A stretch of DNA of 64,000 bases, taken from assembly GCF_029227855.1 (NCBI RefSeq), contig NZ_CP074357.1; one strand, 5' to 3'. A model generated the notes under the pieces. It was not told where the DNA came from and did no database searches. It worked only from the letters and a program-made list of their open reading frames with translations. Source of the DNA: Escherichia coli (lineage in GTDB: Bacteria; Pseudomonadota; Gammaproteobacteria; Enterobacterales; Enterobacteriaceae). Shown here one piece after another: positions 24,675 to 25,494 of this stretch (positions are counted from its first letter, which is position 1; every line of letters begins with the position of its first letter). A program made the translations under genes and the position numbers.

Positions 24675-25494
24675 GGCACTGTTGCAAATAGTCGGTGGTG
24701 ATAAACTTATCATCCCCTTTTGCTGATGGAGCTGCACATGAACCCATTCAAAGGCCGGCATTTTCAGCGTGACATCATTCTGTGGGCCGTACGCTGGTAC
24801 TGCAAATACGGCATCAGTTACCGTGAGCTGCAGGAGATGCTGGCTGAACGCGGAGTGAATGTCGATCACTCCACGATTTACCGCTGGGTTCAGCGTTATG
24901 CGCCTGAAATGGAAAAACGGCTGCGCTGGTACTGGCGTAACCCTTCCGATCTTTGCCCGTGGCACATGGATGAAACCTACGTGAAGGTCAATGGCCGCTG
25001 GGCGTATCTGTACCGGGCCGTCGACAGCCGGGGCCGCACTGTCGATTTTTATCTCTCCTCCCGTCGTAACAGCAAAGCTGCATACCGGTTTCTGGGTAAA
25101 ATCCTCAACAACGTGAAGAAGTGGCAGATCCCACGATTCATCAACACGGATAAAGCGCCCGCCTATGGTCGCGCGCTTGCTCTGCTCAAACGCGAAGGCC
25201 GGTGCCCGTCTGACGTTGAACACCGACAGATTAAGTACCGGAACAACGTGATTGAATGCGATCATGGCAAACTGAAACGGATAATCAACGCCACGCTGGG
25301 ATTTAAATCCATGAAGACGGCTTACGCCACCATCAAAGGTATTGAGGTGATGCGTGCACTACGCAAAGGCCAGGCCTCAGCATTTTATTATGGTGATCCC
25401 CTGGGCGAAATGCGCCTGGTAAGCAGAGTTTTTGAAATGTAAGGCCTTTGAATAAGACAAAAGGCTGCCTCATCGCTAACTTTGCAACAGTGCC
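24675..25494 (+). mobile_element. IS26 variant (Tnp26 G184N)
   Basis: Both IRs present; GGC to AAC at codon 184 plus one synonymous change (ccgcga to ccacga). Confidence 0.95.
24738..25442 (+). CDS. tnp26: IS26 transposase, G184N variant
   Basis: ..[18 protein letters not shown].. versus ..[10 protein letters not shown].. in six other copies. Confidence 0.95.
   Translation: MNPFKGRHFQRDIILWAVRWYCKYGISYRELQEMLAERGVNVDHSTIYRWVQRYAPEMEKRLRWYWRNPSDLCPWHMDETYVKVNGRWAYLYRAVDSRGRTVDFYLSSRRNSKAAYRFLGKILNNVKKWQIPRFINTDKAPAYGRALALLKREGRCPSDVEHRQIKYRNNVIECDHGKLKRIINATLGFKSMKTAYATIKGIEVMRALRKGQASAFYYGDPLGEMRLVSRVFEM

Follow-up and report, generated by a model that had tools for sequence, protein, structure and literature searches.

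The question raised by the IS26 copy at 24675-25494 is whether an insertion sequence with a substitution reported to raise its activity, lying among standard copies of the same element, reveals how the surrounding resistance region was built. The copy lies in a 64,000-nucleotide stretch of Escherichia coli DNA (contig NZ_CP074357.1), which was analysed as a whole and is referred to below as the window. The window represents the multiresistance region of an IncHI2 plasmid. The original prediction, made from the letters alone, held that the copy encodes a Tnp26 transposase with the substitution G184N, that this corresponds to the published hyperactive form, and that its presence next to wild-type copies suggests that the region was put together from two or more sources, or by an active variant. 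Overall, it is very probable that the locus is best explained by an intact, presumably functional IS26-v1 within an IncHI2 island that was built stepwise.

The IS26 copies were located by BLAST of the element against the window and were then compared base by base (Table 1). Copy D has the length of about 820 bp and the perfect 14-bp terminal repeats beginning with GG (GGCACTGTTGCAAA) that define IS26, and its single ORF encodes a 234-residue DDE transposase in which D78, D138, and E173 (catalytic residues numbered according to PMC8477213) are all present. The protein matched the Pfam family DDE_Tnp_IS240 with an E-value of 5e-49 and a score of 166 (cutoff 27). Residue 184 is located eleven residues past the catalytic E173, within the DDE domain, in the stretch KLKRIINATLGF, which includes KRIINATLGF as predicted. 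No second-site inactivating defect is visible in the sequence of copy D. A structure search for an IS6-family transposase returned only weak matches to retroviral integrases (residues 74-144), none of which covered residue 184.

Table 1. Features of copy D, the other IS26 copies, and the segments next to the two variant copies (positions in the window).
Feature	Position	Strand	Basis or remark
Copy A, last 95 bp of IS26	1-95	+	cut by the window edge; codon 184 outside the fragment
Copy B, standard IS26, complete	2346-3165	+	BLAST and base comparison
Copy C, standard IS26, 782 bp	6719-7500	+	without right terminal repeat; ORF intact
Copy D, IS26-v1, complete, 820 bp	24675-25494	+	BLAST and base-by-base comparison
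Copy D, left 14-bp terminal inverted repeat GGCACTGTTGCAAA	24675-24688	+	perfect pair with 25481-25494
Copy D, tnp26, encoding Tnp26(G184N), 234 aa and stop	24738-25442	+	ATG at 24738; translated
Copy D, silent G>A at IS position 459, third v1 marker	25133	+	comparison with standard copies
Copy D, codon 184, AAC (Asn); standard GGC (Gly)	25287-25289	+	read directly
Copy D, right 14-bp terminal inverted repeat TTTGCAACAGTGCC	25481-25494	+	perfect pair with 24675-24688
aac(3)-IId, tmrB-like ATPase gene, small ORFs, truncated DUF3883 gene	25495-29249	+	3,755 bp; transferred from pK475-2_309k
Copy E, standard IS26, complete	29250-30069	+	direct-repeat partner of copy D
Copy F, standard IS26, complete	32850-33669	+	BLAST and base comparison
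Copy G, standard IS26, complete	56908-57727	+	BLAST and base comparison
Truncated IncN replication-initiator gene fragment	57728-58712		985 bp between copies G (+) and H (-); transferred from pL1
Copy H, second IS26-v1, complete match to copy D	58713-59532	-	identical to copy D, inverted relative to it

The alignment of all copies, which had been proposed as a check, separates copies D and H from the standard copies of the window by three base differences and no others: G>A at IS position 459, which is silent, and GG>AA at positions 613-614, which gives G184N. The second variant copy of the original prediction is copy H, which has the same three changes. The count of six other wild-type copies held for five, four of them complete and one truncated, but the sixth is the 95-bp fragment at the window edge, which is untypable. 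The variant makes up two of the seven typable copies and is not over-represented. The truncated copy C overlaps an annotated IS6100-like remnant at 6452-6757, and the sister plasmid pOYZ4 has the same truncated copy (PMC9019673).

IS26-v1 is defined by three nucleotides that differ from IS26, two of which result in G184N in the catalytic domain (PMC9412624), and copy D has three differences of which two give G184N. Under the names IS26-v1, IS26*, and IS15-delta-1, the element shares with copy D the 820 bp, the terminal repeats, and the three differences including G184N; compared with the definition by the number of changes and by G184N, copy D shows no detectable difference. Judged by its sequence, copy D is therefore not merely similar to IS26-v1 but is this element. 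IS26-v1 was first named IS15-delta and is listed in ISfinder as IS15DI (PMC7986276; PMC12540391), and it is the commonest natural variant of IS26. Standard IS26 agrees with copy D in 817 of 820 bases and 233 of 234 residues, as well as in its terminal repeats and promoter region; it has G at 459 and GG at 613-614 in place of A and AA. Since the two forms share the first 458 and the last 206 bases, end-directed reactions between them should be possible. RefSeq keeps the standard protein (WP_001067855.1) and the variant protein (WP_001067858.1) under separate accessions, and both are found at the same site in sister plasmids. In the four sister plasmids checked, WP_001067858.1 is encoded at the copy D site, and three of these have G at 459. 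A further form, IS26-v3, is said to have the same G184N substitution (PMC12540391). A candidate for it (AA at 613-614, G at 459) occupies the copy D site in at least four sister plasmids and lacks the silent change at 459 that the window copies have.

That G184N raises cointegrate formation goes back to Pong et al. 2019 (FEMS Microbiol Lett 366:fnz031), as related in the papers that cite it. In PMC8477213, from the same laboratory, the change of G184 to N is described as enhancing cointegration, and better binding to the terminal repeats is suggested as a possible reason. The enhancement is restated in PMC9019673, PMC12540391, PMC11137137, and PMC7986276. With the haplotype being that of IS26-v1, and with the cointegrate claim repeated in several citing papers, including some of the Hall laboratory, the link that the original prediction drew between G184N and the hyperactive variant agrees with the literature, in which the variant is reported to have a higher cointegrate-forming activity than standard IS26.

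The distribution of the variant was examined with a 61-mer centred on the AAC codon, for which exact matches were counted. It is present in 4,150 of 72,556 PLSDB plasmids and in 2,231 of 5,827 IS26-bearing replicons of complete E. coli genomes. Among plasmids of Klebsiella, Escherichia, and Salmonella, 1,385 IS26-v1 and 6,266 IS26 transposases have been recorded (PMC11137137). In plasmids, the standard form hence outnumbers the variant about 4.5-fold, which argues against a large natural advantage of the variant. Overall, the G184N variant is real, old, and widespread, and finding it together with standard IS26 is normal and not a clue. The allele, its effect, its co-residence with standard IS26, and the plasmid context have all been published already, for this plasmid lineage too.

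The gene content of the window was obtained by transferring annotations from the near-identical plasmids pK475-2_309k (Enterobacter roggenkampii, IncHI2A), which matched positions 14000-38000 in one piece, and pL1 from E. coli, which, together with others, matched positions 39001-64000. On this basis, the left part of the window consists of an IS26 end with an integron remnant, dfrA14, arr-2, and a cmlA remnant; IS26 with mph(A)-mrx-mphR and an IS6100 remnant; the truncated IS26 with ISKpn19, qnrS1, and an IS3-family remnant; Tn2 with ISEcp1-blaCTX-M-55 and blaTEM-1; and a penicillin-binding-protein gene and blaLAP-2, followed by copy D. Copy D is followed by aac(3)-IId and the tmrB-like gene, then by IS26 with an integron remnant, aadA22, and lnu(F), and by IS26 with a mef(B) remnant, sul3, and IS1. 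After about 13 kb of IncHI2 backbone there is a tet(A)/tetR module, then IS26 with the 985-bp IncN replication-gene remnant, and finally the inverted copy H with a 251-bp tet(A) fragment, lysR-floR, and ISVsa3. In pK475-2_309k (L001 8783-9252), 468 extra bases are present between the ISKpn19 transposase gene and qnrS1, and the window lacks them at about 10351.

Copies D and E are direct repeats around 3,755 bp, and the segment 24675-30069 (5,395 bp) is thus a pseudo-compound transposon, which could potentially release a translocatable unit of 4,575 bp. The junction of the IncN remnant with copy H was found in 213 plasmids of 38 to 380 kb and of many backbones; among 60 sampled rows of the 213, 48 are exact and carry the variant, and seven have two mismatches. 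The IncN-remnant module, in most cases with the variant, is in circulation among different backbones, and this supports assembly of the island from IS26-bounded pieces of differing origin.

Several repeats were observed in the window. A perfect inverted repeat of 943 bp (11756-12698 and 23732-24674) has one arm that stops exactly at the left end of copy D, and contains an IS3-family transposase remnant from between blaLAP-2 and qnrS1. It seems that the island holds two pieces of a single blaLAP-2-qnrS1 segment that overlap and face in opposite directions; a duplicate of 943 bp would not result from inversion by IS26 alone. A second perfect inverted repeat, of 251 bp (53132-53382 and 59533-59783), is formed by the tet(A) fragment that abuts the left end of copy H and adjoins lysR-floR, the complete tet(A) being 5 kb away. 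A perfect direct repeat of 1,551 bp (49869-51419 and 55357-56907), the second arm of which ends exactly at the left end of copy G, is probably made of two partial Tn1721 copies, which were recombination substrates in the sister plasmid according to PMC9019673. A direct repeat of 587 bp with 99.3% identity (96-679 and 30423-31009) has one copy beside the copy A fragment and the other 354 bp to the right of copy E; both look like class 1 integron intI1/attI1 remnants, before dfrA14-arr-2 and before aadA22-lnu(F), respectively. The 38-bp terminal repeats of Tn2 are at 12707-12744 and 20595-20632, with the 5-bp flanks TTTTA and TGTTA, and no clean target duplication is seen there.

A single copy-in event leaves an 8-bp target-site duplication as its footprint, and membership in IS26 does not depend on it; targeted conservative incorporation, adjacent deletion, and recombination leave no such duplication, which in islands of this kind is typically missing. 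When the flanking 8-mers of all IS26 copies in the window were compared in direct and reverse-complement orientation (210 comparisons), no copy was found to have such a duplication, and the flanks of copy D, CCATAGTC and AGAGTGAG, differ. Therefore, no recent copy-in event of the variant can be read from the sequence. The left flank of copy B, CTCGCTCT (2338-2345), and the right flank of copy D, AGAGTGAG (25495-25502), are reverse complements at seven of eight positions, which is probably a coincidence, with about 0.08 such matches expected by chance in 210 comparisons. In pL1, the counterpart of copy G (L002 27066-27885) is followed at its right end by GATTCAAG, and the same 8 bases, read on the IS strand, stand before the left end of an inverted IS26 (L002 36157-36976), about 2 kb past the right end of the window. 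Such a pair is what intramolecular replicative transposition is expected to leave when it causes an inversion. The corresponding flank in NZ_CP068042.1 differs and reads CTGAACGG.

The copy D site was followed in other plasmids with junction queries, restricted by an E-value limit of 1e-170 to alignments that span the junction. The right-junction query of 600 bp, with 300 bp from the IS, codon 184 included, and 300 bp from the side of aac(3)-IId, found 69 plasmids, nearly all conjugative and of about 250-310 kb, and identity was 100% in 47 of 60 among the matches listed. As these plasmids belong mostly to one lineage, the junction is consistent with inheritance as well as with movement. A module-wide search showed that most plasmid aac(3)-II modules have no IS26 at this boundary. 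A universal unit of IS26-v1 and aac(3)-IId was considered and rejected, because the junction is lineage-specific and absent from most aac(3)-II modules.

With a 1,220-bp query covering both junctions, 56 full-length records were obtained from assemblies of Salmonella, E. coli, Klebsiella, Enterobacter, Shigella, and Vibrio from several countries. Given as the bases at 459 and at 613-614, the pattern is A-AA (v1, an exact match to the window) in 36 records and G-AA, with one mismatch, in six (e.g. NZ_CP095166.1 and NZ_CP068042.1), G at 459 and AA at 613-614 being read in all four of those checked. It is A-GG in a single record (NZ_CP071712.1) and the G-GG of standard IS26, with three mismatches, in seven (e.g. 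NZ_CP079936.1 and NZ_CP090138.1); the other six records have small indels or lower identity. The G184N variant is thus not tied to the aac(3)-IId module, as seven sister plasmids have standard IS26 there and a few have mixed patterns. Since standard IS26 occupies the identical site in some sister plasmids, the IS type is no stable marker of origin. The mixed patterns are suggestive of an exchange between the resident copies, by recombination or gene conversion, and fall short of proof, because the pattern in NZ_CP068042.1 can also be explained by a polishing artefact.

The same concern bears on the window itself, in which the AAC codon might be an error of sequencing, assembly, or polishing in a copy D that is truly standard IS26. 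There are many IS26 copies, short reads have no unique placement deep inside an 820-bp element, and it is plausible that polishing introduces artefacts there; the two variant copies of NZ_CP068042.1 read AA at 613-614 together with G at 459, the deepest marker, as short-read polishing toward the majority allele would yield. However, the three linked markers occur together in two separate copies of the window, the full haplotype and both junctions are identical in 36 independent assemblies from differing hosts and countries, the AAC codon is present in thousands of plasmids, as counted above, and the variant has been known as IS15-delta since Sanger-era sequences (PMC7986276). An error at codon 184, against which the original prediction had cautioned, is excluded by the same haplotype at the same site in independent sister assemblies, and this explanation can for practical purposes be dismissed. 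It is also highly improbable, if slightly less so, that copies D and H derive from one recent intramolecular replicative transposition by the variant with a resulting inversion. The two copies are identical and of opposite orientation, as such an event would leave them, but their flanking 8-mers, CCATAGTC and AGAGTGAG for copy D and AGCAGGAC and GTCTAACG for copy H, have no direct or reverse-complement relation, and each junction is found separately in other plasmid backbones. The derivation of both copies from a single inversion was rejected on account of these unrelated flanks.

A more serious competitor, although still an unlikely one, is that the variant is a passive passenger, with G184N of no consequence and with the copy that carries it set by recombination or gene conversion instead of by import or variant-driven transposition. 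This would agree with the occurrence of four marker patterns at a single site whose flanks do not differ, with the lack of a target duplication at any copy, and with the minor share of the variant among the typable copies. Recombination within IS26 is, moreover, already a published theme, reportedly treated by Partridge et al. in 2011. Against this reading, the variant predominates at both of its sites in many assemblies, from which its location appears fairly stable, and part of the mixed patterns may be polishing artefacts. In addition, it was IS26-v1, and not the more numerous standard copies, that fused with chromosomes in a sister plasmid (PMC9019673).

This sister is the IncHI2 plasmid pOYZ4. 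It and MRCP, the form of it that is integrated into the chromosome, contain ten copies of IS26 or IS26-v1, and in pOYZ4 no IS26 copy has a target duplication and one is without the right terminal repeat (PMC9019673). The window resembles them in being an IncHI2 multiresistance region with IS26 and IS26-v1, without target duplications, and with one copy that lacks the right repeat; the flank GCCGACG upstream of one IS26 copy recurs in the window at 29243-29249, and IS26-v1 lies beside aac(3)-IId in both. The same modules are arranged otherwise in the window, and no integration event is visible there. In the pOYZ4 study, an IS26-v1 copy made copy-in cointegrates with siiE of Salmonella and bglH of E. 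coli J53, and it also produced an adjacent deletion into the Tn2 resolvase gene; G184N was discussed by the authors as the reason for the tendency of the variant toward fusions between replicons (PMC9019673). The gene order given for the remnants includes IS26-aac(3)-IId-IS26-v1-Tn2 remnant (PMC9019673), and from this gene order beside aac(3)-IId the acting IS26-v1 of pOYZ4 appears to be the equivalent of copy D. The derivative plasmid pPJ-T0 is 236,068 bp in length (PMC9019673); NZ_MN539017.1 (236,068 bp) is 100% identical to the window at the copy D site, as are several "Salmonella sp." records that are presumed to be plasmids of that study.

The mixture of variant and standard copies is most likely the result of stepwise assembly from IS26-bounded modules of differing origin, followed by recombination between the copies. 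IS26 is known from the literature to yield cointegrates only, by the copy-in and the targeted conservative routes, and Tnp26 works preferentially in cis (PMC8477213). Tnp26, as the single DDE transposase, binds the 14-bp terminal repeats and gives rise to cointegrates and to no other product. By the copy-in (replicative) route, the IS is duplicated and an 8-bp target duplication made, and by the targeted conservative route it joins another IS26 with no duplication. Asn184 is reported to raise cointegrate formation, with tighter binding of the terminal repeats as the proposed cause. The variant copies may be the likelier initiators of new fusions and deletions in the plasmid that carries the window, and the island itself may have grown by successive incorporation of IS26-bounded units together with recombination. 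As to the suggestion of at least two sources or an active variant, it fits a mosaic without target duplications, but it is weak and not special.

From the occurrence of all four marker combinations at one fixed site with identical flanks, it is conceivable, although we would lean against it, that in the IncHI2 lineage the G184N allele is handed from one resident IS26 copy to another without transposition, through recombination or gene conversion inside the element. If so, a hyperactive allele could spread or vanish within an island regardless of which modules its IS26 copies bound, and IS-type markers would be unusable for tracing the origin of modules. For annotation, the practical value of the finding is that the elements at 24675-25494 and 58713-59532 should be recorded as IS26-v1, with the caution that the type of IS at a given site differs between sister plasmids. 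In Gram-negative pathogens, resistance genes are assembled and moved mainly by IS26, and a more active allele of it could speed plasmid-chromosome fusions, gene amplification, and the reshuffling of resistance islands.
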